A DNA stretch of 43,848 nt, taken from contig JAEOSZ010000034.1 in assembly GCA_016840095.1 (NCBI GenBank), forward strand, positions 1-43,848, given 5' to 3'. Position 1 is the stretch's first letter; each line of letters opens with the position of its first letter. Below are positions 17,244 to 31,604 of this stretch, in pieces. The notes beneath the pieces were generated by a model. The model saw nothing but the letters and a program-made list of their open reading frames with translations, made no database searches and was not told the origin of the DNA. The translations under genes were made by a program, and so were the position numbers. The stretch comes from Candidatus Heimdallarchaeota archaeon (lineage in GTDB: Archaea; Asgardarchaeota; Heimdallarchaeia; Heimdallarchaeales; Heimdallarchaeaceae).

Positions 17244-18614
17244 ATGAGCTTGTTTAAAACAAATTTTATGAAGCTCGTTGAAGCATTCCTTCAAGACAAA
17301 GGCTTTAGAGTAGAGATGTGCAATATTTACACAAGAAATGTAGATTTCTTTGAAAGCTACAAGAGAGTAATCATGTGCGCATATAAAGATGATTTACTTC
17401 TAACTATCCGTGCAAGGAGTGGAGAAGCATCAGATCCTTTCAAAGGGACAGATGAACAAATAGAAGCTAAACTCCAAGAACCTGCTCTTAAACTATTAAG
17501 TTGTGTTCTTTCTTTGAATTCGGGAATGGATTCAGTCTTTTGTGAGAAATTCAAAGGGATGAAAGCTATACCAGTAATTATTATGGAAAAATCTTCTAGA
17601 AATCATCCACTTTACTATTATTTTGATGGAGAGACTAGAGAATCTAAAGAATGGTATAAGAAGAAAAACGTTGTTTATCTTCCATGGGAGTGGGTTAAAG
17701 AATTCTGGAATAGAGATTTTGAACTATCTCTTTTGGACCAAGGATATGAGGTTTTAAAACCAATTATACATGAGCCAGAGCTTCATATAAAACAAGCAAT
17801 AACTGAAATTGAAGAAGTACTAGCATCTAGAAGAATCGGGATTATGAAATCCGTTCATCTAGATAAACCCACTCTTCCTCCATTAGCTCTTACTCTCACT
17901 CAAAATGATCAGATGATGATTTTTGTTGTAGATGAACCTGATGATAATGTACATCCAAAGCTAATGGATTTTGCAATATATCATTTTGGAACAAAAATAG
18001 ATAAGTTTCCAACTACTGTTAAAGCCATATTTTTCAACATTTCAATTATTGATAAAGAAAAAAGCTACATGATTCCATATGTTCCTAAAGATAACAAATT
18101 TGTTGAGAAACATTTTGAACATCCAATAGTTATCAAGACAACAACCAAAGGCTTTCAATTGCTTTTGGAAGCTGCTACTGTTGAAGAATTATCTGCTCTC
18201 CCTCAGTTAAGTCCACTTACAAGTCTCGAAATGGAGGATTTATTGTTAACTTCCTCTGGATATTGGTTCTCAAATGTTTTTGAAGAAGCTAAAAAAAGAT
18301 TGAAGAATTTCTATCATTCGAAATGTCCATTCTGTTCAAATGCAAACATATTACATCAAATTCCTCATTATGTTATAAATCATCTGAAGATGGAATTAAA
18401 TATAACTAAGGAGAATTCATATACTGTTTTCTGTGATGACACAAGAAATGGTTGTGGTTTTGGTTTTCTTATTGTTAAAGACAGAATCCAAGGCGGAGTT
18501 CACGGATTTTTCGTTGGTGGAGATCAACAATATGCTCATGAATTAGATAGTGCAAAAAGACAAATCCAGACTATTGGATTAAGAGCACAGTCATTCACAC
18601 ACATAAAGCAGTGA
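17244..18614 (+). CDS. Hypothetical protein with a C-terminal putative zinc ribbon
   Basis: 456-aa ORF; CPFC...FCDDTRNGCG near the C-terminus. Confidence 0.7.
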   Translation: MSLFKTNFMKLVEAFLQDKGFRVEMCNIYTRNVDFFESYKRVIMCAYKDDLLLTIRARSGEASDPFKGTDEQIEAKLQEPALKLLSCVLSLNSGMDSVFCEKFKGMKAIPVIIMEKSSRNHPLYYYFDGETRESKEWYKKKNVVYLPWEWVKEFWNRDFELSLLDQGYEVLKPIIHEPELHIKQAITEIEEVLASRRIGIMKSVHLDKPTLPPLALTLTQNDQMMIFVVDEPDDNVHPKLMDFAIYHFGTKIDKFPTTVKAIFFNISIIDKEKSYMIPYVPKDNKFVEKHFEHPIVIKTTTKGFQLLLEAATVEELSALPQLSPLTSLEMEDLLLTSSGYWFSNVFEEAKKRLKNFYHSKCPFCSNANILHQIPHYVINHLKMELNITKENSYTVFCDDTRNGCGFGFLIVKDRIQGGVHGFFVGGDQQYAHELDSAKRQIQTIGLRAQSFTHIKQ

Positions 18615-19004
18615 TTAGCTAGGTATAAATTTGAATCCATATCCAATTAATCCTTCTTCTCCATTTTTTGATAGAATCCTGAATACTGTTTTGACCTTCA
18701 TCCCATACTTAAGATCTTCAATTTTAGTATCTGTAATTTGTCCTGTTACTCTAGTCCCATCATCCAATTCAATGAGACCTATGATGTATGGAGTGTTAAA
18801 CATCATTACATCAGCTGTTTGTGTCACTCTTGTGAAATGTAGAACCTTACCTGTTTGAGCAAGTTTGATCTCTTCAATATCGTTACTAGAACACTCTGGA
18901 CAAAAATCAGTAACTGGAAAACTCTTCATCTGACATTTATTGCACAAGATTCCTAGAGTAAGATATCTTTGTCTTCTTTCTCTCCATATTTTTGGTGGCT
19001 CCAT
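18615..19004 (-). CDS. DUF35 Zn-ribbon/OB-fold scaffold of the thiolase/HMG-CoA synthase complex
   Basis: CNKC...FP..FCPEC, PYIIGLIEL, GQITD, GMKV..VFR, YGFKF; operon context. Confidence 0.93.
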   Translation of the reverse strand: MEPPKIWRERRQRYLTLGILCNKCQMKSFPVTDFCPECSSNDIEEIKLAQTGKVLHFTRVTQTADVMMFNTPYIIGLIELDDGTRVTGQITDTKIEDLKYGMKVKTVFRILSKNGEEGLIGYGFKFIPS

Positions 19005-20185
19005 TAATTATCATCCTCCATATTAGAAAAAATATTCACCACTACATTGGCACCTGTTCCCATTACATTCTGCGTTAAACCAAATTTTGCTTCATCGACT
19101 TGTCGTTTGTCTGCCTCTCCATTGAGCTGCTGTACGATTTCTATTATTTGAGCAATACCTGTTGCACCGAAAGGATCACCTCTAGCTTTGAGACCCCCAC
19201 TTGTATTCACACTAATTTCAGAATTAGTTTGGGTTTTTCCTTCTGTAGTAGCATGACCTCCCTCTCCTTTTGGAAAGAATCCTAAATCTTCAATCGCTAG
19301 AATTTCCCCAATTGGGAAAGAGTCATGTACTTCTGCTAGACTAATATCTTCTGGAGATTTTTTTGCCATAGAATATGCTTTTTTTGCAGCAGCTTTTGTT
19401 GCTGAAAGAGATGTTAAGGTCTTTCTATGGTGTAAAGCTAGTTTATCTGAAGCTTGAGCTGATCCCACTACTTTGGTTTTAAGCTCTATTTCTGAATGTT
19501 TTCTAACAAATTCCTTAGAAGCAATAATTACTGCAGCACTTCCATCACAATGAGTTGCTGGATCAAATCTACCAATAGGGTCAGAGATTCTTTTGGCATT
19601 AAGGAATCTTTCTAATGAAATCTCTCTCCGATATTGAGCTATTGGATTATTCACACCATTCTTGTGGTTCTTAACTGGAACAGATGCTAATTGTTCTAAT
19701 GTTGTTTTATACTCCTTCATATGAGCCTGAGTCAACCAAGCATAGAGACTTGTCAGTGTTGCTCCTTGTTCAAATTCCCATTGATAATCAATAGTACCTC
19801 CAAGAATTTCTTCTATTGTGCTACTATCAACATAGTCACTAGTCTTTTCAGTACCAAGAACTACTATACAATCAAGAAGACCACTCTTCACAGCCAAATA
19901 AGCTTGATGAAATGCTCCTGCACCACTAGCATTTCCTAAATCAATTTTTGAAATTGTTACATCTAAGTTACACTCTCTAGCAGCTTCAGCTCCGATGAAA
20001 GATTGGAGATTACTGTTAGATAATAATGAACCAAAGTAAAGAGCTTGAATTGAATCTTTGCTTATTTTTGAGTTTTGAATTGCTGAAGTTATTGCTTTTG
20101 TTGCGCTAGAACTAGGCTTCGTACTATATTGTTCTCCAAACTTTGTTATTCCATATCCTATTATGAAAACATCACTGTTACTCAT
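19004..20185 (-). CDS. Archaeal SCP2-type thiolase homologue with substituted catalytic residues
   Basis: GITKFGE, KNHKNG..NP.AQ, DGSAAVI, EVHDSF, VNTSGGLKARGDPFGATG. Confidence 0.9.
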   Translation of the reverse strand: MSNSDVFIIGYGITKFGEQYSTKPSSSATKAITSAIQNSKISKDSIQALYFGSLLSNSNLQSFIGAEAARECNLDVTISKIDLGNASGAGAFHQAYLAVKSGLLDCIVVLGTEKTSDYVDSSTIEEILGGTIDYQWEFEQGATLTSLYAWLTQAHMKEYKTTLEQLASVPVKNHKNGVNNPIAQYRREISLERFLNAKRISDPIGRFDPATHCDGSAAVIIASKEFVRKHSEIELKTKVVGSAQASDKLALHHRKTLTSLSATKAAAKKAYSMAKKSPEDISLAEVHDSFPIGEILAIEDLGFFPKGEGGHATTEGKTQTNSEISVNTSGGLKARGDPFGATGIAQIIEIVQQLNGEADKRQVDEAKFGLTQNVMGTGANVVVNIFSNMEDDN

Positions 20186-20189
20186 TTGA

Positions 20190-21230
20190 TCACCTCAGAA
20201 TTCCTTTGTATCTAGAATAAACACCATAGCTAACTTCCTCCATATTATCAACGTAGTAATCCACTGTTAATGGATAAGTTTTGACACTTTCTATTTCATC
20301 AGTAACTAAGAATGAAAATGAATCACTACCGGCTCCACTGCCATAAGAAGTTATGAATACTCTATCGCCAGGGTTGGAATTATTCAGAATCGTTGATAAT
20401 CCTAACATTGATGAAGCAGAATATGCATTCCCAATTTTCTTACAAATAAGGCTGATATCAACTTGATCTACTGTAAATCCAAGCATCTTTGCTACTGCTA
20501 GTGGAAATTTAGTATTAGGTTGGTGGAATGTAGCAAATTTATAATCTGTTGGTTTAGTTCCGAGTTTCTCCATTAATCCTTTAGAAGCATCCACAATATG
20601 CTGAAAATATGCTGGTTGTCCAGTAAATCTGTTTCCATGAGATGGATATATAGCTCCTTCTCTTCTCCAGAAATCTGGTGTGTCAGTAGTTACTGAATAT
20701 GTACCTTCTAGTTCTGCAACAACTCTTTCTGAACCAATTAAAAATGCAGCACTTCCAGCACCAGCAGTATATTCAAGAGGATCTCTTGGTTTAGCTTGAC
20801 TGTCATCAGAACCTATTGCTAGCCCAAACTTGATCATATTAGATTTGACTAGACCAAAGCACATCTGCATCCCAGCTGTTCCTGCTTTGCATGCAAATTC
20901 CAAATCAGCAGCTGTTAATTCCTTTTCTGAATCTATTGCTGAAGCAACTATTGTTGCTGTAGGTTTAACTGCATAAGGATGCGATTCACTCCCAACATAA
21001 ATAGCTCCAATATCTTGAGGATCCCCCTTCCATCTTTTCAATGCATTTCTTGCAGCTTCGACCGACATCGTAGCTACATCTTCATCAGGCCCTAGTACTG
21101 ATTTAAACTGAACCTGCAATTGCGTTTTAATTTCATTTGGATCTTCACCCCATACCTTTGCTATTTCTTCAACAGCTATTCGGTATTTGGGGATATACGA
21201 ACCATAGGATACTATTCCTACTTTGCTCAT
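20190..21230 (-). CDS. Hydroxymethylglutaryl-CoA synthase (archaeal type)
   Basis: GSESHPYAVKP, DLEFACKAGT, DTPDFWRR, FHQPN, SYGSGAGSD; catalytic E/C/H intact. Confidence 0.96.
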   Translation of the reverse strand: MSKVGIVSYGSYIPKYRIAVEEIAKVWGEDPNEIKTQLQVQFKSVLGPDEDVATMSVEAARNALKRWKGDPQDIGAIYVGSESHPYAVKPTATIVASAIDSEKELTAADLEFACKAGTAGMQMCFGLVKSNMIKFGLAIGSDDSQAKPRDPLEYTAGAGSAAFLIGSERVVAELEGTYSVTTDTPDFWRREGAIYPSHGNRFTGQPAYFQHIVDASKGLMEKLGTKPTDYKFATFHQPNTKFPLAVAKMLGFTVDQVDISLICKKIGNAYSASSMLGLSTILNNSNPGDRVFITSYGSGAGSDSFSFLVTDEIESVKTYPLTVDYYVDNMEEVSYGVYSRYKGILR

Positions 21231-21356: not shown

Positions 21357-22043
21357 TTAATCATCTTCTTTTTCTTCTTTAATCTTTTGAGGAACTTTAG
21401 ATATAACAACTCTAGCTGGTTTGAGTAAAGAACCTTCTAATATGAAACCTTTGGATACAACTTCAATTATTTGGTTGTTAGTCTTTTTTGCATCTTCAAT
21501 TGTATATAGAACCTCATGAAATTTAGGATCAAAAATCTCGTTGATTGGATTAATAACTTTCATACCCAGTGTTTCGAAAGTCGATTTTGTATTTTCGAAA
21601 ATCATTTTGATAGCTTTCTTAGAAGATTTCAAATCATCATTTTCGATTATTTCTTTCTGAGTTCTTTCTAAATCTTCATACAAAGTTGTAAATTTCTGAA
21701 GAACGCTACTCTTACTTTGAAAATTAGAGAATTCTTGATCCTTTTGAACTCTCTTCTTGAAATTTTCGAAGTCAGCTTGAACCCTTTGAGCAGTATAAAG
21801 ATATTCATCTTGTTTTACCTTAGCTTCTTTGAGCTCTTCTTGTAATGACCAGATTAGTTCAGTTAAATCTTCTACCTTATTGTTATTAACTAAATTTAGA
21901 ATTTCAACAGATAACTGATTCTTTTTCTCTTCATCAGGGTTTGGCTCAATTTCCTTTTGAGAGCTTTTTTCCTCTGGTTCACTATCTACATCTACTTCGA
22001 TGAATTCTTCTTCATTATTAGGGTCGTTTTTCTTCTCATACAT
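21357..22043 (-). CDS. grpE: Nucleotide exchange factor GrpE
   Basis: RVQADFENFKKR, FDPKFHE, KGF......LKPARV; start moved to ATG 22043 (AGGTGG SD upstream). Confidence 0.93.
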   Translation of the reverse strand: MYEKKNDPNNEEEFIEVDVDSEPEEKSSQKEIEPNPDEEKKNQLSVEILNLVNNNKVEDLTELIWSLQEELKEAKVKQDEYLYTAQRVQADFENFKKRVQKDQEFSNFQSKSSVLQKFTTLYEDLERTQKEIIENDDLKSSKKAIKMIFENTKSTFETLGMKVINPINEIFDPKFHEVLYTIEDAKKTNNQIIEVVSKGFILEGSLLKPARVVISKVPQKIKEEKEDD

Positions 22044-22196
22044 GGGAAATATCCACCTATGAATCTCGTTTTTCAGCCCAATTACTGACATTTAAAATCT
22101 TCGATTTAACCAATATAAATCTAGTTTTCACTGTTACAGAAAAAGATAAGTTTTGGTCGAACTAAACGTTTATTTAGTAAACACATAAAAATGGCA

Positions 22197-22241: not shown

Positions 22242-23471
22242 GTGAAAATGCATGAAAAAATAAGTGAAAAATCTAAACAAAACAAAGAGTTGATCAAAAA
22301 GCTCATCAAGAAACTGCATGATGGAGAAGACCCTCAAAAAGTGAAAGAGGAATTCAAAGAAGTCATCAAAAATCTATCTTCTCTTGAAATAGCTCAAGCT
22401 GAAGAACAACTCATAAAAGAAGGAATGCCAGCTGAAGAAATCCATCATATGTGCGATGTGCATTTAGCTGTTTTAGAAGAAACACTCATAGAAGATCAAG
22501 ATTTAGCTCCAGAAGGACATCCAATTCACATTCTTATGCAAGAGCATGCAATACTCCTTGAAAATGTAAATAGATTAAGAGATATTCATAAGGAAATCAG
22601 TCAAAAGAATAATTTTCCAGAAGTTTTGGAAGAATTAGCAGAAATTGAAAATATAGTTGAGATGATTAAGAAATCAGAAAATCACTACCTTAGAGAAGAG
22701 AATGTTCTTTTTTCATATTTGGAAAGATATGGAGTAACACAACCACCTAAAATTATGTGGATGGAACATGATAGAATTCGTGATTTAGAAAAGAATTTAA
22801 TCAATCTAATTGAGAAAAAAGGTGAAAATGATTTTCCAACATTTCTAGAAAAATATCATTTGTATGTGCATGGTTTAGCAGAAATGCTAGCAAGTCATTT
22901 TCCTAAAGAAAACAAAATTCTCTTTCCAACTGCAATGAAATTAATTAGTGAGACAGACTGGAATGAAATTAGACAACAATTTGATGATATTGGTTATTTC
23001 TATCTAACCCCAGATATTGTTCCAGAAAAGGATCTAGTAGTTGAGAAAACTGAAACTACAGTTGTTGGAGATAAACAAGTAGATTTAGGGACAGGAGCTA
23101 TAGATCTAGAGATTCTTCAGAAGATATTCAAAACTCTCCCTATTGATACAACATTTGTTGATGAGGATAACATAGTTAGATTCTACAGTGAAGGACCTGA
23201 TAGAGTGTTTGTTCGAACCCCAAGTGTAATTGGAAGATTAGTTGAAAATTGCCATCCTTCTAAAAGTGTAGATAAAGTGTTAGAAATTATTGATGGTTTC
23301 AGAAATAATACTCTTGATCAAGCTGAATTCTGGTTAGATTTCGGTGGTAGAAAAATCTACATTAGATATTTTCCTGTGAGAAATAAAAATGGAGACTATC
23401 AGGGAGTTTTAGAAGTTACACAAGACATTACTGAAATTCAAAAAATTGAAGGCGAAAAAAGATTACTTTAA
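22242..23471 (+). CDS. DUF438 / hemerythrin / PAS domain protein
   Basis: EQLIKEG...MCDVH, GHPIHILMQEH, HYLREENVLF, MWMEHD, HFPKENKILFP, VENCHP, GVLEVTQDIT. Confidence 0.92.
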   Translation: MKMHEKISEKSKQNKELIKKLIKKLHDGEDPQKVKEEFKEVIKNLSSLEIAQAEEQLIKEGMPAEEIHHMCDVHLAVLEETLIEDQDLAPEGHPIHILMQEHAILLENVNRLRDIHKEISQKNNFPEVLEELAEIENIVEMIKKSENHYLREENVLFSYLERYGVTQPPKIMWMEHDRIRDLEKNLINLIEKKGENDFPTFLEKYHLYVHGLAEMLASHFPKENKILFPTAMKLISETDWNEIRQQFDDIGYFYLTPDIVPEKDLVVEKTETTVVGDKQVDLGTGAIDLEILQKIFKTLPIDTTFVDEDNIVRFYSEGPDRVFVRTPSVIGRLVENCHPSKSVDKVLEIIDGFRNNTLDQAEFWLDFGGRKIYIRYFPVRNKNGDYQGVLEVTQDITEIQKIEGEKRLL

Positions 23472-24335: not shown

Positions 24336-25292
24336 ATGGTTTTCAATCCATTTGACAATGAAGATTCCAAGGATGATTCTAAGAAAGCAAAGCTAAGAAA
24401 TCAAGCTCAAGAACAGTTTATTCAGCAATTACAACAAAGAATAGCAGCTCAATCTAGTAAGATAGAAGAATTGCAAGTCGAGATTTCTAAATTGAATCAA
24501 GTTATTCAAAATAAGGATTCGGAATTAGGGATTTACTCCAAAAAAGTAGAAGAAGAGAGAATGTTTTTCGAACAAGATAAGAAAGCTAGAGATGATCGGG
24601 AATATGAACTTCAGAAGATAGTTCAACAAAAAGAAATAGAGCTGAAAAAGGTACAAGAAAGTGCCCCAACAACAACTTTTACTCCTCCAACACCTCCAGT
24701 TGATTCTAGTGTTTCTGATATTCCAGAAATAGATTTGGGACCTGTAAATAACTATGTGGATACCTTAATGGCTTATTATAAGAAGCCAACAGATGATATT
24801 TTCGTTACTTCTCTTAGAGATTTAGTTATACACTGTAGCGAAAATGGAACACCGGATCAATTGATTTTAGGAATTCTTCTCAAAGCAGAAATGCCACTAA
24901 CTGAAGAAGAATTAAAACAGAAAATTAGGATTGAACCTCAAGATATTTCTAGGGCAGTTTTCAGATTATTACAGAAGAACTTTATTAAAAAGGTTGGTCG
25001 AGGGTATGCTGTCGTATCCTCTGAATTTGCTGAGATGACTGATATCTCAAAAAATTGGGGTGGCTTAACACCTGAACAAGTTTACGAGAATTTACTTTCT
25101 GTTGTGTATGTTGAGTCTGACAAAGATGAGTTAGTTCTAGCTTTTACCAAAGCAAGAGATGCTCTGATGGAGATGGGTGTTTTAGCTACTTCTAGAAGAC
25201 ACGAAATAAGTCAAATAATTGAGAAAATAAAAAGACATCCTTTCACAAATAATGAATTGACAGAAACAATCAAAACATGGATTGAATCATAG
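24336..25292 (+). CDS. Coiled-coil protein with Pro-rich linker, wHTH and C-terminal helical domain
   Basis: Q/E/K heptads at about aa 15-108; PTTTFTPPTPP; ILGILLKAEMPLTEEEL...DISRAVFRLLQKNFIKK..RGY. Confidence 0.75.
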   Translation: MVFNPFDNEDSKDDSKKAKLRNQAQEQFIQQLQQRIAAQSSKIEELQVEISKLNQVIQNKDSELGIYSKKVEEERMFFEQDKKARDDREYELQKIVQQKEIELKKVQESAPTTTFTPPTPPVDSSVSDIPEIDLGPVNNYVDTLMAYYKKPTDDIFVTSLRDLVIHCSENGTPDQLILGILLKAEMPLTEEELKQKIRIEPQDISRAVFRLLQKNFIKKVGRGYAVVSSEFAEMTDISKNWGGLTPEQVYENLLSVVYVESDKDELVLAFTKARDALMEMGVLATSRRHEISQIIEKIKRHPFTNNELTETIKTWIES

Positions 25293-27077
25293 TATTATTT
25301 TCATACCAAAAGGTCCTCTGAAAATAAACTTTGCTTCCTTTTCTTCAACTTCCATTATCAAATCTATTGGAAAACCATCTATTGTAGATTCTTTTGGAAT
25401 TCCTACCTTTACCTTACCTTCATACAGCTTTACCTGTCTCCCAGGGCTAATGTCATAGGTTGAAAATGGTGTTTTCAAAATTAATCCAATTCTTGGTGAA
25501 TAGTAAGGATTTTTCAAAAGTATAAATGAATATACTTCCCCTTCCTTAATTATAGTACCACTGTGATAGATGTAAAACCAATCTTGAAGAAATACATTCA
25601 ATTCTTCCTTAGGTACAAATTCGTGTGAAACAAGTCGCTGCAGCTCATTTATATTTGCAATATTTATTACTGGAATTTGGAATATTCCCAATTCTTGCAA
25701 ATCTTCAATTCCTTGGTAAATCTCTTCTGTACATCTTTCCTTTATCGCATAGTGTAAAACAACTAATAATTCCAGAGTATCCTTAGAGAGAATTTGATCC
25801 TTAAGATTCAATGCGAGATAATGAGATTGAAGAAGTATCAGTAATGCATGTTCAAATTTCTTTTTCTGCAATAGAATATAACCGATTTGAATAAGTAAAG
25901 CAACTTCATCTTTACCTTCAATTACAGCTCTCTTATCTATTAAGCCACTTTCCATTATGGTGGAAGCTAATATAACCGCTCTTGTCAAACCTAACAGATC
26001 AAGTCGATCCTGCTTTTCACAAAGAAATAGGAATTTCTCTGAATAATATCCTCCTAGTCTTTCATGATTGTCTGTTACAAGGAAATAAACCATTCTTAAG
26101 AAATGAAGATCCATAAAGATATCTGAAACAAGTTTTGGGAATATCGTTGAAACCTCAGTAATGATATTAAGGTGTCCATCTAGTTTTTCGAAATCAAGGA
26201 GAGTGAATTCAACTATACTAAGTAGATATAGTATTCTAGCTTTCAGGCGTATAGATAATTCTTCTATATAGCTTTCTTTTTCCAAAAGTGCTACTCTAAG
26301 TTCTAATGATAAATCAGACAATACAGTATATGCTTCTTCTAATTCTAATCTAAGAACCTCAAGATTACCCTTTTCCATTTCCTCAATATAGTTTGGAAAT
26401 TCGAATTCAATTTCATTCATTACTTCTATTAGTTTATTTTCTTCTTCCAATGTGTGATATTGAGAGGTGTCTTTTTCAGGAGAAATTTGATTAGCTGCAG
26501 TAATATTTTGAAGAACATTAATTGCGTGTTCTTGAATTTTCTTGATTCTAGTTACAGGATCATACATTTGTCTTTTTTCGACTGAATGTCTTATTTCATC
26601 TGACAAAACAGTATCATGAATCTTTTCCAAAGTTTCGTTATGAACCTCATGAAAACAAGTATTTCTGAGTAGGAAGACAAAAGAAGAACATATTAGAACA
26701 GGAACATCTAGAGTCTCACAAGTCTTTACTAATTTCAAATCACTAGAAACTACAACAGCGTTGATTTGTTTTGCTGCGACTATATTTGATAAATCATTTA
26801 TCTGGGGGGAAGAAAGCTCCTCTTTATCTAAATTGTCCTTATAATCTCTAATCTCCTTTATTGGCACTTTCAATATTTGAATAGGAGTTTTTATTCTTCT
26901 TCGAAGATACCAACGAATTTCCTGTAATATGTATGTCGTAATATAAAGTTCAATACCCATCTCTGTTACAATATCTAAGAATAAGCCAAAATCTGAAGGA
27001 TTAGTTTCAAAACCACTGATAAAGAAATTTGCATCTAGAACGAATTTGTTGTTCTGCACTCTTTTTGTGGAAATCAT
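25287..27077 (-). CDS. PIN-domain protein with long helical (TPR-like) region and beta-rich C-terminal domain
   Basis: FVLDANFF, ILQEI, QINDLS, VVSSDLKL acidic tetrad. Confidence 0.8.
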   Translation of the reverse strand: MISTKRVQNNKFVLDANFFISGFETNPSDFGLFLDIVTEMGIELYITTYILQEIRWYLRRRIKTPIQILKVPIKEIRDYKDNLDKEELSSPQINDLSNIVAAKQINAVVVSSDLKLVKTCETLDVPVLICSSFVFLLRNTCFHEVHNETLEKIHDTVLSDEIRHSVEKRQMYDPVTRIKKIQEHAINVLQNITAANQISPEKDTSQYHTLEEENKLIEVMNEIEFEFPNYIEEMEKGNLEVLRLELEEAYTVLSDLSLELRVALLEKESYIEELSIRLKARILYLLSIVEFTLLDFEKLDGHLNIITEVSTIFPKLVSDIFMDLHFLRMVYFLVTDNHERLGGYYSEKFLFLCEKQDRLDLLGLTRAVILASTIMESGLIDKRAVIEGKDEVALLIQIGYILLQKKKFEHALLILLQSHYLALNLKDQILSKDTLELLVVLHYAIKERCTEEIYQGIEDLQELGIFQIPVINIANINELQRLVSHEFVPKEELNVFLQDWFYIYHSGTIIKEGEVYSFILLKNPYYSPRIGLILKTPFSTYDISPGRQVKLYEGKVKVGIPKESTIDGFPIDLIMEVEEKEAKFIFRGPFGMKIIL

Positions 27078-28690
27078 ACTAGCTCCTTCTTACGTTTATT
27101 CTTAATAATTGAATAGACGAGTATACAATAAAAAATTATCTGCTCAAAATGAAAAGGATATGGTGTTTCTGATATATTTTCGAATTCAGGCTTAGTTATA
27201 TTCTCTAGTACTGATTCAATATAATACTCGAAGTAGTAATAATTCCCTAAATCTACTTCTGGAGGATCATAAAATGAATGATACATTTCTTGAAACTCTA
27301 CCGCAAAGGATTGCAGCTGTCCATTGTCAGAATATGCTAGCCAGCCATTCATAAATACTGCTGTGTCTTGAACAAAAATCCTTGGGACAACAGTTTGAGT
27401 GTTATTAGATTGAAAATCAAAAGAAAATTCCCATATAAGATGGTGAAGATTTTCTTTTTGTTGATATTCTATTTGTAAATCTATTTCTCGAATGGTATAA
27501 AGAGAACTTGTTACTCCTGTCAAAGTGAATTGGAATCCATTGAATACTTCACTTAATTGGTTCCACAGAGTTTGTGCTAATAACGCTAATCCTGAATATC
27601 TATCCCATGTGGGGATTAAAGCTGGGGGTACTTGGGCAACCCATGAACCATGTATGGGTGTAGAAGTAAAATATGATTCAAGTAGAGCATTATAAACATA
27701 GAGTGTTTTTTGAAAATTTAAACCAGATTTAGTAAACAAATAGTGTAATCCTAATGTCTGATTGAGTTGATTTACCCATTCATCGAAATCTTCAAGCTGT
27801 TCTTGAGTAGAGTTTCTTTGTTGATAAATTTCATGGTTAGCATAGCTGTTAGTAATGAAGAAATCAGCTTGTGTTGAATCTAGTGGAGAAAGAATTTCCT
27901 CGTAATTTTCCAAAGCCATCACTAAGACACTACTCTTACCTTCATAGATAAGGTGAAGCGAGAGAGCTAGTAAAACACCACTAGTTTTGCTCCAGGTTGC
28001 TCTCATCGAAATAGCAGTATCCATATCAATATCCAATGATACTGTAAATTCTTCATCATCCTGGTTGTAAATATTGACAGAGAAAGATTCATCTAGAAGC
28101 AATGAAGCAAATTCAGCTTCAAATCTATCATAGTTGTCATCTAATATTATTGGCAAGAAATCTAAGTAATCAGCATCTTTAATCATTGCTCCAAAGTTTG
28201 GTCGAGTAATGTTTGCAAATATATTTGGTAATATTATTACTGTATCTTGTGGCAATACTGCTTGTATTGTTTCCTGTTCTATTGGTTCAAAATTGAAGCC
28301 TATGAAATCTGCTATAAAATCACTACCAGTGTTGATTTCAGCAGTTAGAGGTTCTTCAATTACCAAATAACTTTCTGTCAAGAATACTTCTTCTTGGGTA
28401 AGAATAAACTGATCTGATTCTATAAAGTAGATCTCTCTAAATTCAGAAATTCTATCTTTAAGAAGTATCTTAAAATTAGCATTTGAAAAAGATCCTTCTA
28501 AATTGAAACCTAAGTTCTGGAACATATTTTCAAGATTTTCACCTTGTGCAATCTTATAGTTGAGAAGATATCCTTTATCATCAAAACTAGCATCTCTAAA
28601 GTCTATACTATTTTCTGCTTCTGTTCTTGAAAAAGATAGACTAAGAACGAAGAGAATCAATGCTAGTGATAATATCTTCTTATTTCTCAT
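27074..28690 (-). CDS. Secreted, C-terminally anchored cell-surface protein
   Basis: Signal peptide MRNKKILSLALILF...; C-terminal ETPYPF + hydrophobic helix + KNKRKK. Confidence 0.75.
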   Translation of the reverse strand: MRNKKILSLALILFVLSLSFSRTEAENSIDFRDASFDDKGYLLNYKIAQGENLENMFQNLGFNLEGSFSNANFKILLKDRISEFREIYFIESDQFILTQEEVFLTESYLVIEEPLTAEINTGSDFIADFIGFNFEPIEQETIQAVLPQDTVIILPNIFANITRPNFGAMIKDADYLDFLPIILDDNYDRFEAEFASLLLDESFSVNIYNQDDEEFTVSLDIDMDTAISMRATWSKTSGVLLALSLHLIYEGKSSVLVMALENYEEILSPLDSTQADFFITNSYANHEIYQQRNSTQEQLEDFDEWVNQLNQTLGLHYLFTKSGLNFQKTLYVYNALLESYFTSTPIHGSWVAQVPPALIPTWDRYSGLALLAQTLWNQLSEVFNGFQFTLTGVTSSLYTIREIDLQIEYQQKENLHHLIWEFSFDFQSNNTQTVVPRIFVQDTAVFMNGWLAYSDNGQLQSFAVEFQEMYHSFYDPPEVDLGNYYYFEYYIESVLENITKPEFENISETPYPFHFEQIIFYCILVYSIIKNKRKKELV

Positions 28691-31604
28691 TTTTGGTTCC
28701 TCTCTTTTTCTTCTTCTTATCTCCTTTGAAAGTTATTACAATTGCAGGAGGGACAATGAATAATCTAGAAACAAACACATCGATTAAGATACCTATTCCC
28801 AATCCTAGACCCAGCTGTTTCATGTGGATAGATGATGTAAACAACAAGCTAAAATATGTAGCTGCCATAATAATTCCTGCAACAGATATATTATTCATTG
28901 TTTGATCTACGGCATCTACAATTGCTTTTTCTGAATCCTTAACATTAGTGTAGATGTCTTGAAAAATACCTAGAAAAAGCACATCAAAATCTAGTCCTAA
29001 AGCAGTTAAAACTGCATAAGCTAGTAATGGTACTATCCAGTATACTGATCCTCCTAAGAATAGGAAACTGAATAAACTGAACAATCCTAAGCTTATCCCA
29101 AGTGAGAGAAGTATAGTAATTAGAACCCTAACGGACATGAAGAATTTTCTAAGAAATAAAAATAACAACAGTGTAATAGTAAGAGATACAAACATGAAGA
29201 TAAGATTGAAATCTCGGGAAATTCCTGTTTTTGAATCATATAAGACTGGTGCAAAACCTGTTGCATATACAACCCACTCTGGGATATCTCTTTGTTCAAT
29301 TATATCTGAAATCATCGTTCTAATTGTTTTGATTTGATCATCTAGTTTCTTGTCTCCTTCTGTAAAAGAAGAACCACAATATACAATTGCATATGTTTCA
29401 TCTGGGAAAACGAAATTCTTCATAAGAATATGGATTTCCTCTGTGATAAACAGAGAATTGTTAACAAGAGTATCTTCGTATGGTTTACCCATAGGATGAC
29501 TTATACCTGCTAGTACCGTGATATTCGTTGCAATCGTTATTGCTTCAATGATAAATAGAACTTCATTAATAGAATCAAAATTCAAACTTCCATTACTTAG
29601 AATAAATGGATCCAAATCTGTTGTTTTGAAAAGCAAAGAGATTTGACTAATATATTCAACTCCCATATGTTGATTTATGGCATCTAATCCCTGTTTAGAT
29701 TGATATGCTTGTGGGGCTGAAGAAATTTGAGCATAATCTGTAGGAACTGCTAGAAAAACTCCTAATCCTATAAGGGAGATTATAACTGAAGCAATCAAAA
29801 CCTTCTTAGGTTTCTTGACTGCTTTTCTAACATATTTCATGAGAGTACCTCTTCTCTTCTTGAGAATCTTAATATTAATTTTCCATTTTGATAATATATT
29901 TTGATTAAGCAAAATCAATATCGAAGGAACTAGTGTTAGTGAAACAACCATACTTGTTAAGAAACCTATTATTCCACTTATTCCCATACCTGTTGCTAAA
30001 GCAAAACTGCTTAGAACTAACCCCCCAAAACCAAATGACAAGGACACGGAAGCTATAATTATGCTCTTGGAGGTGCGTCTAAGTGTAGTTCTGATTGCAC
30101 CATATTTTGTTTCAGTCTTCTTCAGATTTAAGAGGTAATCTCCTATGAGAAATACACAATAATCTGTTGTTGCCCCTAGGAGAGTTACACTTAGAATAAT
30201 AAGACTCGTGGAATCTAATCCTCCTGTTATGGTTCCAAATCCTATGAATAAGAGTCTTGAAACAGCAAAAGCAATTGCTAGAACTGAGAGTTGAATAAGC
30301 GGTAAGATAGGTGATCTATAAACTAATAGTAGAATAATTACAATTGTTATTATGACTATCAAATCGGTTCTCTTTGCTTGAATTTGATAATCTAATGAGA
30401 TTTCAACAATGAAGAAATCAATGCCTGTACAATGAATTTCTAAAGGCAGATTTACCTCTTTTATCTGTGGGAGAATATTTAGCAGTTCAAGATAAGCTTC
30501 CTTCCCTTCTACATTCAAGTGATTGAGTGCCATGTTAAAAGTAACTAATGTAGTATCAGCATCTCCAATTTCCTCTTTGAAATTTGTATACTGTTTAAGA
30601 AAAATCATAATAATATCATCTGTTATTGGAGGTATAGATGTCGTCATTGTTAATACTGGAATAAGATATTTATTTTTAGCATCAATGAAACCTTGTATAT
30701 TCCCATCATCATACACTTCCTCAACAAAATCTACTTCTGCTGAGTTATTCGTCCCATAGAGAAATTCAGCTGTTTTTTCGTAAGAGTATGTGGTATTTTG
30801 CCATTTGCTTGAATTGAAGTTATTAGAGAGCAATGTTAGAAGTTCTGTTTGTCTAACGTCCGCTGATACCTCGGAAATAAATGAAGAATTAGAATTGATT
30901 ATGTTACTTAACAGGTTGAGAACATCTGTCTCATTAGAAGGTAAAGTTAAGCTAGCAAAATGATTAAAACTCTTCGAAATTTCTTGGTAAAAAACATCTA
31001 CAAACTCAATATATCTTGATTCATTGAAAGATGTTAAAAGAGAATCTAAGTAGTTTTCAGTTAGAGTTTTAGTAATAGTAGTTGCTAATGGAATGTCACC
31101 TGTGCTATTATACTGATCCAACCAGATTGTACTGAAATATTGGATGCCACCCCAAACATAATGTATTGATGCAAAGGATAATTGTGTTGCATACCATTGG
31201 AGACTTAGAATTGTTCTAAGGAGATTATCTGCATCATCATACAACGATGAATAGGGTTTGCTTGATGATAAAAATGGACCGATTTTTGGGTTGTGCGTTA
31301 TATTGTAAATTAAACTTGATACTTTTTGATACATGGATTCAGATATCGTAGTACCATTAGGATTATGAATTATGATTTGAAACGAACTATTTGTTTCACT
31401 GAAAGAAGATAAAATTTCTGTACCGATCGTAGATTCAGATTTTCTAGTAGTAGACAGATTATCTCCTTCATCAGTTACGTAATCAGAAACATTGAGTATT
31501 TTGTTAATATTTATTGAAACAAGCAATATCCAAAATAGAATAATTGCTGAAGCAACGATTTTAGGTCTCTTCCAGAGCTTATCCCAAATTTTCAAATTAC
31601 TCAA
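28680..31604 (-). CDS. MMPL family (RND superfamily) transporter
   Basis: Two RND repeats with large extracytoplasmic loops; LLLVYRS, GATTDY, GLDFD, AGIIMA, DVFVSRLFIVP. Confidence 0.9.
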   Translation of the reverse strand: MSNLKIWDKLWKRPKIVASAIILFWILLVSININKILNVSDYVTDEGDNLSTTRKSESTIGTEILSSFSETNSSFQIIIHNPNGTTISESMYQKVSSLIYNITHNPKIGPFLSSSKPYSSLYDDADNLLRTILSLQWYATQLSFASIHYVWGGIQYFSTIWLDQYNSTGDIPLATTITKTLTENYLDSLLTSFNESRYIEFVDVFYQEISKSFNHFASLTLPSNETDVLNLLSNIINSNSSFISEVSADVRQTELLTLLSNNFNSSKWQNTTYSYEKTAEFLYGTNNSAEVDFVEEVYDDGNIQGFIDAKNKYLIPVLTMTTSIPPITDDIIMIFLKQYTNFKEEIGDADTTLVTFNMALNHLNVEGKEAYLELLNILPQIKEVNLPLEIHCTGIDFFIVEISLDYQIQAKRTDLIVIITIVIILLLVYRSPILPLIQLSVLAIAFAVSRLLFIGFGTITGGLDSTSLIILSVTLLGATTDYCVFLIGDYLLNLKKTETKYGAIRTTLRRTSKSIIIASVSLSFGFGGLVLSSFALATGMGISGIIGFLTSMVVSLTLVPSILILLNQNILSKWKINIKILKKRRGTLMKYVRKAVKKPKKVLIASVIISLIGLGVFLAVPTDYAQISSAPQAYQSKQGLDAINQHMGVEYISQISLLFKTTDLDPFILSNGSLNFDSINEVLFIIEAITIATNITVLAGISHPMGKPYEDTLVNNSLFITEEIHILMKNFVFPDETYAIVYCGSSFTEGDKKLDDQIKTIRTMISDIIEQRDIPEWVVYATGFAPVLYDSKTGISRDFNLIFMFVSLTITLLLFLFLRKFFMSVRVLITILLSLGISLGLFSLFSFLFLGGSVYWIVPLLAYAVLTALGLDFDVLFLGIFQDIYTNVKDSEKAIVDAVDQTMNNISVAGIIMAATYFSLLFTSSIHMKQLGLGLGIGILIDVFVSRLFIVPPAIVITFKGDKKKKKRGTKNEK

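Follow-up and report, generated by a model that had tools for sequence, protein, structure and literature searches.

In archaea, the accepted entry to isoprenoid lipid synthesis is a complex of acetoacetyl-coenzyme A (CoA) thiolase, 3-hydroxy-3-methylglutaryl-CoA (HMG-CoA) synthase (HMGCS, also HMGS) and a DUF35 protein, in whose thiolase the His of the GHP motif forms oxyanion hole 1 and activates the nucleophile. For the archaeal enzymes, PMC12960953, with reference to Voegeli 2018, reports no activity of HMGS by itself and insolubility of the acetyl-CoA C-acetyltransferase (ACAT), i.e. the thiolase, when it is expressed alone. Related tripartite complexes are PhlACB of P. protegens (5M3K) and MucABC of S. 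macacae (9VBO), Friedel-Crafts acyltransferases in which the dead HMGS-like subunits PhlA and MucA are retained (PMC12960953), and SCP2-thiolase folds without nucleophile Cys are found with DUF35 partners in the steroid side-chain retro-aldolases Ltp2-ChsH2 and Sal-Shy (6OK1 and 9MYR). Here, a stretch of 43,848 nucleotides from a Candidatus Heimdallarchaeota archaeon (contig JAEOSZ010000034.1 of assembly GCA_016840095.1, hereafter the window) was analyzed, in which the mevalonate entry operon encodes a thiolase-fold protein lacking the Cys nucleophile. Judged from its sequence, the operon most likely specifies the known complex with a pseudoenzyme subunit in place of the active thiolase. The source genome is a metagenome-assembled genome (MAG), 89% complete with 7.8% estimated contamination.

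Three closely packed genes on the minus strand at 18615-21230 encode HMGCS (346 aa, 20190-21230), a Cys-less SCP2-type thiolase-fold protein (393 aa, P0001, 19004-20185), which is the candidate non-catalytic subunit, and a DUF35 zinc-ribbon/OB protein (129 aa, 18615-19004), and this operon is the sole HMGCS locus in the genome. The HMGCS stop codon is separated by 4 nt from the start of the thiolase-like gene, whose stop codon shares 1 nt with the DUF35 start codon (junction TAATG), and the thiolase-like open reading frame (ORF) is full length; the full length and the coupling to both neighbors described in a first-pass annotation of this DNA were thus confirmed. HMGCS scored above the cut-offs of NF003274 (530 bits) and TIGR00748 (516 bits) and, in the HMMER alignment with 6esq_I (432 bits), showed approximately 62% identity to the Methanothermococcus thermolithotrophicus enzyme, with an intact E-C-H-N tetrad (SESHPY, EFACKAG, FHQPN and GNAYS), so that the catalytic E, C and H noted in the same annotation are indeed kept, together with the Asn. 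The DUF35 protein (PF01796, 8e-14) is free-standing, matched 6esq_E with 86 bits and keeps the CxxC...CxxC zinc ribbon. The three genes, their order, their tight coupling, the HMGCS tetrad and the DUF35 zinc ribbon are therefore the same as in the M. thermolithotrophicus complex, and by synteny the operon belongs to the archaeal thiolase/HMGCS/DUF35 module, with a predicted subunit role for the thiolase-fold protein. The thiolase subunit itself departs from that of M. thermolithotrophicus: the nucleophilic Cys, the Cys of HDCF and the His of GHP are absent, as are other residues of the active-site loops, and without them the known mechanism of forming acetoacetyl-CoA in place and channeling it onward would not be open to this subunit.

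The translated motifs of the thiolase-fold protein are KIDLGNASGAG, AEVHDSFPIGE and KARGDPFGATG. When aligned by HMMER with the solved archaeal thiolases of M. thermolithotrophicus (6esq_A) and Pyrococcus furiosus (7yvy_A), Asn85 (AAT, 19931-19933, minus strand as for all residues below) was placed under the nucleophile Cys, Ser289 (TCT, 19319-19321) under the HDCF Cys, and Asp337 (GAT, 19175-19177) under the GHP His at the site of oxyanion hole 1, which verified the three substitutions at the codon level. The further statement that all three catalytic motifs are substituted held for the nucleophile Cys, the GHP His and the HDCF Cys, but not for His287 (CAT, 19325-19327), which is retained together with Asp288 in the HDS of the HDxF loop (19319-19327, x being Ser), so that this motif is only partly substituted. 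The His of HDxF is essential in that its replacement (H284A) abolishes HMG-CoA formation (PMC12960953). Cys at the x position was invariant in 51 canonical operon thiolases, yet it is absent from the P. furiosus thiolase, which reads HDAF; a literature search found no paper on 7YVY or its gene PFC_04095.

Alignment columns were compared among the 51 canonical operon thiolases (state C-H-C-H, in the order nucleophile, HDxF His, HDxF x and GHP His), 81 Heimdall-clade sequences and 22 Cys-less Thermoplasmata sequences. Among 111 columns conserved at 90% or more in the canonical set, 84 were kept in both Cys-less groups. The nucleophile column, 100% Cys in the canonical set, was Asn (77%) or Thr (20%) in the Heimdall clade, and the GHP column changed from 100% His to 98% Asp. 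Further changes from the canonical residue to the Heimdall-clade residue were Ala to Gly at position 84 (100%), Met to Leu at 115, Thr to Ser at 116 (100%), Cys to Pro at 209, Ser to Ala at 210, Cys to Ser at 289 and Phe to Tyr at 290, with the canonical Phe-Pro at 144-145 also changed, the canonical His at 63 variable, and the canonical Gly at 375 replaced by Met, Ser or Leu. Ser210 to Ala arose independently in both Cys-less groups. The altered columns fall in what we take to be the classical thiolase active-site loops (nucleophile, post-N-beta-4, pantetheine, HDCF, GHP, and C-terminal with oxyanion hole 2), and in the thiolase mechanism the loss of His337 and Gly375 removes both oxyanion holes. 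Positions 63, 85 and 375 vary within the Heimdall clade, which argues against a catalytic role of those side chains. Two Cys residues, Cys213 (TGT, 19547-19549), located in the loop preceding the DG(A/S)AA strand, and Cys106 (19868-19870), were each conserved in 96% of the Heimdall clade, where the canonical residues are Thr/Ser and Ile/Val, respectively; the canonical Cys209, four residues upstream of 213, is Pro in the window protein.

The thiolase-fold protein matched PF22691 (3e-41, 140.9 bits) and PF00108 (3e-14, 53.5 bits), both above the Pfam gathering score. It reached 364.8 bits against NF053570, the equivalog model of the M. thermolithotrophicus thiolase, whose cut-off is 600, and 402.7 bits against its best model, PRK06064 'thiolase domain-containing protein', whose cut-off is 420. 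The window protein thus fails the tests for acetoacetyl-CoA thiolase (EC 2.3.1.9) in nucleophile Cys, GHP His and equivalog score. The AlphaFold2 model (mean pLDDT 94.2, pTM 0.94) had as its best match in the PDB a chain of the M. thermolithotrophicus thiolase (6et9_C; TM-score 0.93, root-mean-square deviation 1.6 Å, 36% identity), and as modeled the five-layer SCP2-type thiolase fold is intact.

Twenty-two orthologues with 62-79% identity were found among 24 other species of the genus, and every one of them sits between HMGCS and DUF35 and carries Asn or Thr, Ser (once Ala) and Asp at the three sites; the same substitution pattern was shown by all of 60 database proteins at 55-84% identity. 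The pairwise ratio of nonsynonymous to synonymous substitution rates (dN/dS; NG86, pairs with dS 0.05-1.5) was 0.07-0.22 for the thiolase-like gene, with a median of 0.13; the values for HMGCS and DUF35 were 0.11 and 0.14, respectively. The thiolase-like gene is under purifying selection, and the check proposed in the first-pass annotation, i.e. whether orthologues in the same operon share the substitutions and are under such selection, gave a positive answer. The median identity among canonical sequences was 0.62 for HMGCS, 0.61 for the thiolase and 0.48 for DUF35, and that between canonical sequences and this genus was 0.56, 0.43 and 0.36, respectively. The divergence of the thiolase-like subunit thus far exceeds that of its partner HMGCS, and the divergence of DUF35 runs in step with it.

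The distribution of the substitutions was determined at 110 loci: relatives contributed 30 of these, and the other 80 came from scanning a single genome for each species. Operon thiolases of the C-H-C-H state were found in methanogens, DPANN groups, Wukongarchaeum and several bacteria, whereas every operon thiolase of the Heimdall order was Cys-less, with the state N/T-H-S-D in this genus and E/G-H-I/S-A/Y in two other Heimdall families. Most Thermoplasmata operon thiolases were also Cys-less, including those of Methanomassiliicoccales and Methanomethylophilaceae, and carried G/D/E/S at the nucleophile and D/F/Q/R/Y/N/H at the GHP site. The nucleophile position reads N/T/A in the Heimdall genus clade and E/G in the other Heimdall families, and the GHP position D/N and A/Y, respectively; such drift of catalytic-site residues between lineages is as expected for positions without a catalytic role. 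HMGCS-thiolase-DUF35 synteny was kept at 29 of 29 Cys-less Heimdall-order loci and at most Cys-less Thermoplasmata loci. The Thermoplasmata proteins, which are annotated 'thiolase domain-containing protein' or 'acetyl-CoA C-acetyltransferase', resemble the window protein in their operon position and in the loss of the nucleophile Cys (46-49% identity), and in many of them the GHP motif is likewise GDP and Ser210 is changed to Ala; unlike the Heimdall clade, they keep His63, Met115, Cys209 and Gly375.

A maximum-likelihood tree of 93 sequences required at least four state changes, of which the well-supported branches force at least two, and the Thermoplasmata Cys-less forms made up a separate clade. 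As far as these sequences go, the operon thiolase is as a rule Cys-less throughout the Heimdall order and in Thermoplasmata, and by this tree the nucleophile Cys was lost independently two or more times. A single clade of all Heimdall-order operon thiolases was not rejected (approximately unbiased (AU) test, p = 0.54), and one old loss in that order is thus possible. Two sister sequences (support 100) from Methanophagales MAGs (loci L086 and L038) had operon thiolases reading D-H-I-H in one case and C-H-S-H in the other, and in this ANME-1 relative the D-H-I-H state seems to stem from a recent event in which the nucleophile Cys was lost independently. A separate thiolase-fold clade, in which Pro takes the place of the nucleophile (P-H-A-H) and no HMGCS gene lies next to the thiolase gene, was represented by a thorarchaeotal and a thermoplasmatotal locus (L112 and L116).

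Several lineages combine the Cys-less operon gene with another thiolase. Five Methanomassiliicoccales genomes, one of which is a complete 1.66-Mb chromosome, encode in addition to it a classical bacterial-type thiolase scoring 318-337 bits against PF00108. The one examined, on the complete Methanomethylophilaceae chromosome OY781044.1 (L165:4056-5234, minus strand), matched the Clostridioides thiolase 4dd5 with 439 bits, has intact Cys88, NEAF, GHP and CxG, and is neighbored by the archaeal core genes tiaS, ftsY and orc1 and by a peptidase gene. It looks like an old bacterial (Clostridia-like) acquisition to which acetoacetyl-CoA synthesis passed in Methanomassiliicoccales. In a sister Heimdallarchaeaceae genus, g13, represented by two closed genomes, HMGCS-thiolase and HMGCS-thiolase-DUF35 are arranged in tandem (L178, G053:C1:1294000-1306000) with all thiolases Cys-less, and a canonical C/C/H thiolase-DUF35 pair (L179:5182-6664) is located about 420 kb away. 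The other two Heimdall-order families have 3-9 thiolase homologues per genome, C-H-C-H forms included. In these lineages catalysis looks to have been displaced to another thiolase with the Cys-less subunit retained, and retention of a seemingly dead subunit both with and without another thiolase indicates that it is kept for something besides thiolase activity.

Taken together, the low dN/dS, the intact predicted fold, the drifting catalytic positions, the lineages with displaced catalysis and the published inactivity of HMGS and insolubility of ACAT when each is alone favor, as the best-supported reading, the dead scaffold in an intact operon already suggested in the first-pass annotation: the thiolase-fold subunit is probably a pseudoenzyme without thiolase chemistry, kept as a partner that HMGCS needs, and acetoacetyl-CoA would be supplied from elsewhere. 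It is proposed that the subunit is kept because archaeal HMGCS works only inside the thiolase/HMGCS/DUF35 assembly, of which the thiolase subunit would form the core and contribute half of the shared CoA-binding chamber. The three proteins would still assemble into the heterododecamer with its fused CoA-binding chamber, for which the parallel divergence of DUF35 and the thiolase-like subunit gives indirect support, and HMGCS would use acetyl-CoA together with ready-made acetoacetyl-CoA. In this genus the latter may be produced by a 3-hydroxybutyryl-CoA dehydrogenase-like enzyme (Hbd) through oxidation of 3-hydroxybutyryl-CoA, instead of Claisen condensation of two acetyl-CoA, and crotonase and a short-chain acyl-CoA dehydrogenase (ACAD) with electron transfer flavoprotein (ETF) may feed Hbd from crotonyl- or butyryl-CoA.

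The supply of acetoacetyl-CoA was investigated across the genus in 25 genomes with a completeness of 72-92%, one of them assembled in 20 contigs. HMG-CoA reductase (HMGR) was found in 24 of them, which indicates that the mevalonate pathway is in use. Besides the operon gene, no thiolase over the cut-off was found in the 25 genomes with PF22691, PF00108, PF02803 or the window protein as query, nor was another one found in four genomes of three sister genera, and the pairing with an active paralogue considered in the first-pass annotation is accordingly not supported for this genome. Weak PF00108 matches in the genome corresponded to the ketosynthase (KS) domain of a megasynthase. As other sources, an NphT7/β-ketoacyl-acyl carrier protein (ACP) synthase III (KAS III)-like acetoacetyl-CoA synthase was rejected, PF08541 having matched only HMGCS and a type III polyketide synthase (PKS); acetoacetate-CoA ligase (TIGR01217) was found in none of the 25 genomes, and a 4-hydroxybutyryl-CoA dehydratase route in one. 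The type III PKS, present in this genome, was rejected as a universal substitute, since only 10 of the 25 genomes encode it and the three best assemblies all lack it. Neither the Kce (BKACE) of lysine fermentation nor a class I CoA-transferase was found in this 89% complete genome. The remaining candidates were a single Hbd gene in all 25 genomes (best NCBIfam model PRK05808, 332 bits), a single short-chain enoyl-CoA hydratase (crotonase) in all 25, a single short-chain ACAD in 23, and two EtfAB pairs in this genome. The genes for Hbd (G000:C49, L152:9533-10393), crotonase (L159:3906-4697) and ACAD (L164:8623-9867) are on the minus, minus and plus strands, respectively. Where thiolase is missing, HMGCS would be the obvious consumer of Hbd-made acetoacetyl-CoA, and the C4 route is proposed on this basis; the genus-wide single set of Hbd, crotonase and ACAD agrees with the suggestion that acetoacetyl-CoA might come from fatty-acid or amino-acid catabolism.

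Several points weigh against the assignment of the subunit as a non-catalytic partner. No active thiolase of any type was found in the genus or in the three sister genera, so that a second, unproven assumption on the source of acetoacetyl-CoA is needed, and the C4 route also presupposes a source of crotonyl- or butyryl-CoA. The Hbd, crotonase and ACAD genes are scattered and unlinked to the operon. Finally, several of the replacement residues show strong conservation within the Heimdall clade (Asp337 98%, Cys213 96%, Ser116 100%, Gly84 100%, Glu139 100%), and residues fixed in this way might belong to a newly formed active site, not to a pocket that has been filled in.

The last point leads to the alternative that the subunit or the complex is still catalytic, with a remodeled site (His287, Cys213, Asp337) making acetoacetyl-CoA without an acetyl-Cys85 intermediate. 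Such a site would account for the intact downstream mevalonate pathway in the 25 genomes, where no other thiolase, NphT7-like enzyme or acetoacetate-CoA ligase was found, and it would employ residues that the Heimdall clade conserves. Position 213 is also Cys in 7yvy, the active thiolase of P. furiosus, from which the HDCF Cys is missing. The same residues differ, however, in other Cys-less lineages with the same operon, the Thermoplasmata proteins having Ser/Thr at 213 and Q/R/F/Y/D/N/H at 337; the lineages with a separate active thiolase have retained the subunit without needing catalysis from it; and the loss of His337 and Gly375 would abolish both oxyanion holes. No Claisen thiolase that works without Cys is known to us as a precedent. 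Continued catalysis at a remodeled site is therefore considered unlikely, and slightly less likely again is the specific proposal that the Heimdallarchaeaceae complex still converts acetyl-CoA to HMG-CoA by a new non-covalent or relocated-residue Claisen mechanism, for which His287, Cys213 and Asp337 would be the candidate residues.

A second alternative is a neofunctionalized enzyme with another reaction or substrate, either retro-aldol cleavage as in Ltp2 and Sal or C-acyl transfer as in PhlC and MucB, in which case the operon would not be only the mevalonate entry. The fold matches of the window protein include such rewired, DUF35-partnered thiolase folds (Ltp2, 6ok1; Sal, 9myr; PhlC, 5m3k; MucB, 9vbo), and Sal carries Gly at the nucleophile position (PMC12329534). 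The Ltp2 aldolase had been offered in the first-pass annotation as a precedent for a Cys-less thiolase fold with new chemistry, but its defining residue is missing here: the aldolases depend on the Tyr of YD(H/C)F/Y plus Tyr344 or Cys304 (PMC12329534), whereas the window protein reads HDSF, is 20-21% identical to Ltp2 and Sal, and has a free-standing DUF35 partner, that of the aldolases being fused to a MaoC hydratase and encoded in steroid catabolic clusters. A retro-aldolase of the Ltp2/Sal type was rejected because of the missing Tyr at the first YD(H/C)(F/Y) position and the unfused DUF35. PhlACB, MucABC and the P. fluorescens ACAT/HMGS-DUF35 complex share with the window operon the tripartite composition with one dead thiolase-superfamily subunit, which is required for both assembly and activity (PMC12960953). 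PhlACB and MucABC are nevertheless its mirror image, with a dead HMGS-like subunit and the ACAT-like Cys kept, where the window has an intact HMGS and a presumably dead ACAT-like subunit, and they are bacterial and belong mostly to secondary metabolism, whereas the window operon is the primary mevalonate entry of an archaeon. A C-acyltransferase of the PhlC/MucB type was rejected, since those proteins keep Cys88/87, lose HDxF and partner an HMGS without the tetrad, the window being the opposite on all three counts, with an HMGCS over the NCBIfam equivalog cut-offs. Identity to Ltp2, Sal, PhlC and MucB is low throughout (20-23%), there is no HMGCS locus other than the operon, and HMGR is encoded as well. 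Neofunctionalization thus appears improbable.

A further alternative, again improbable and of the same order, keeps the non-catalytic subunit and changes its supply: acetyl-CoA carboxylase (ACC) and a megasynthase, or the type III PKS, would give acetoacetyl-ACP or acetoacetyl-CoA by decarboxylative condensation, as NphT7 of Streptomyces makes acetoacetyl-CoA from malonyl-CoA by decarboxylative condensation. The genome encodes a type I fatty acid synthase (FAS)/PKS-like megasynthase of 3361 aa with the order enoyl reductase (ER)-KS-acyltransferase (AT)-ACP-ketoreductase (KR)-dehydratase (DH)-phosphopantetheinyl transferase (PPTase), with carboxyltransferase and biotin carboxylase genes on either side; the KS was detected in 21 of the 25 genus genomes, and the type III PKS is at hand in this genome. 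Against such a supply, the type III PKS is missing from most of the genus, including all three best assemblies, no KAS III/NphT7-like gene was detected on its own, the chain would be taken beyond the acetoacetyl stage by a megasynthase that is fully reducing, and HMGCS is a CoA-type archaeal enzyme and not a member of an ACP-dependent HMGS cassette. The megasynthase gene (G000:C57, L135:5847-15932, plus strand) also encodes a second, weak KS-like domain between AT and ACP, its ER being of the NMO type; the flanking carboxyltransferase and biotin carboxylase genes are at L135:4260-5837 (plus strand) and L135:17186-18556 (minus strand).

Lastly, although His to Asp and Cys to Ser are each single-nucleotide changes and the genome is a MAG with some estimated contamination, an assembly or sequencing error or a recently inactivated, decaying pseudogene is ruled out for practical purposes by the conservation of the substitutions, which are shared by 22 further species and about 60 database clusters, by the open frame with its dN/dS of about 0.13 and high-confidence AlphaFold2 model, and by the change from Cys (TGT/TGC) to AAT, which takes at least two steps.

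Around the operon, a 456-aa ORF without Pfam or NCBIfam match (17244-18614, plus strand) is convergent with it and abuts the end of the DUF35 gene (18614/18615), and grpE (21357-22091, minus strand) is located just upstream of HMGCS. Divergent from grpE is the gene for a DUF438-hemerythrin-PAS protein (22242-23471, plus strand), a possible O2/NO or iron sensor. Further along, at 25287-31604 on the minus strand, an MMPL-family transporter gene (974 aa) precedes two large ORFs (538 and 596 aa) that have no Pfam match, and these three genes may constitute a lipid-export module.

Full-text literature searches found no paper noting a Cys-less thiolase in archaeal mevalonate operons, and a 2024 survey of Asgard mevalonate genes begins at acetoacetyl-CoA and leaves the thiolase unexamined (PMC11052028). 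Databases annotate the gene described here as acetyl-CoA acetyltransferase. If the subunit is dead, this annotation is wrong for whole lineages, namely the Heimdall order and much of Thermoplasmata including the gut Methanomassiliicoccales. Archaeal HMGCS would then need its partner for structure and not for chemistry, and the Cys-less subunits would be a natural separation-of-function variant for the fused CoA site. Should a relocated-residue Claisen mechanism operate instead, it would be new chemistry on the thiolase fold at the isoprenoid entry in relatives of eukaryotes. With a dead subunit, the mevalonate pathway of Heimdallarchaeaceae, which are closely related to the ancestor of eukaryotes, must be supplied without the thiolase reaction, which leaves the first step of isoprenoid synthesis to be explained in a lineage close to eukaryotes; a non-thiolase feed of this kind, if true, would bear on reconstructions of Asgard lipid metabolism and on the 'lipid divide'.

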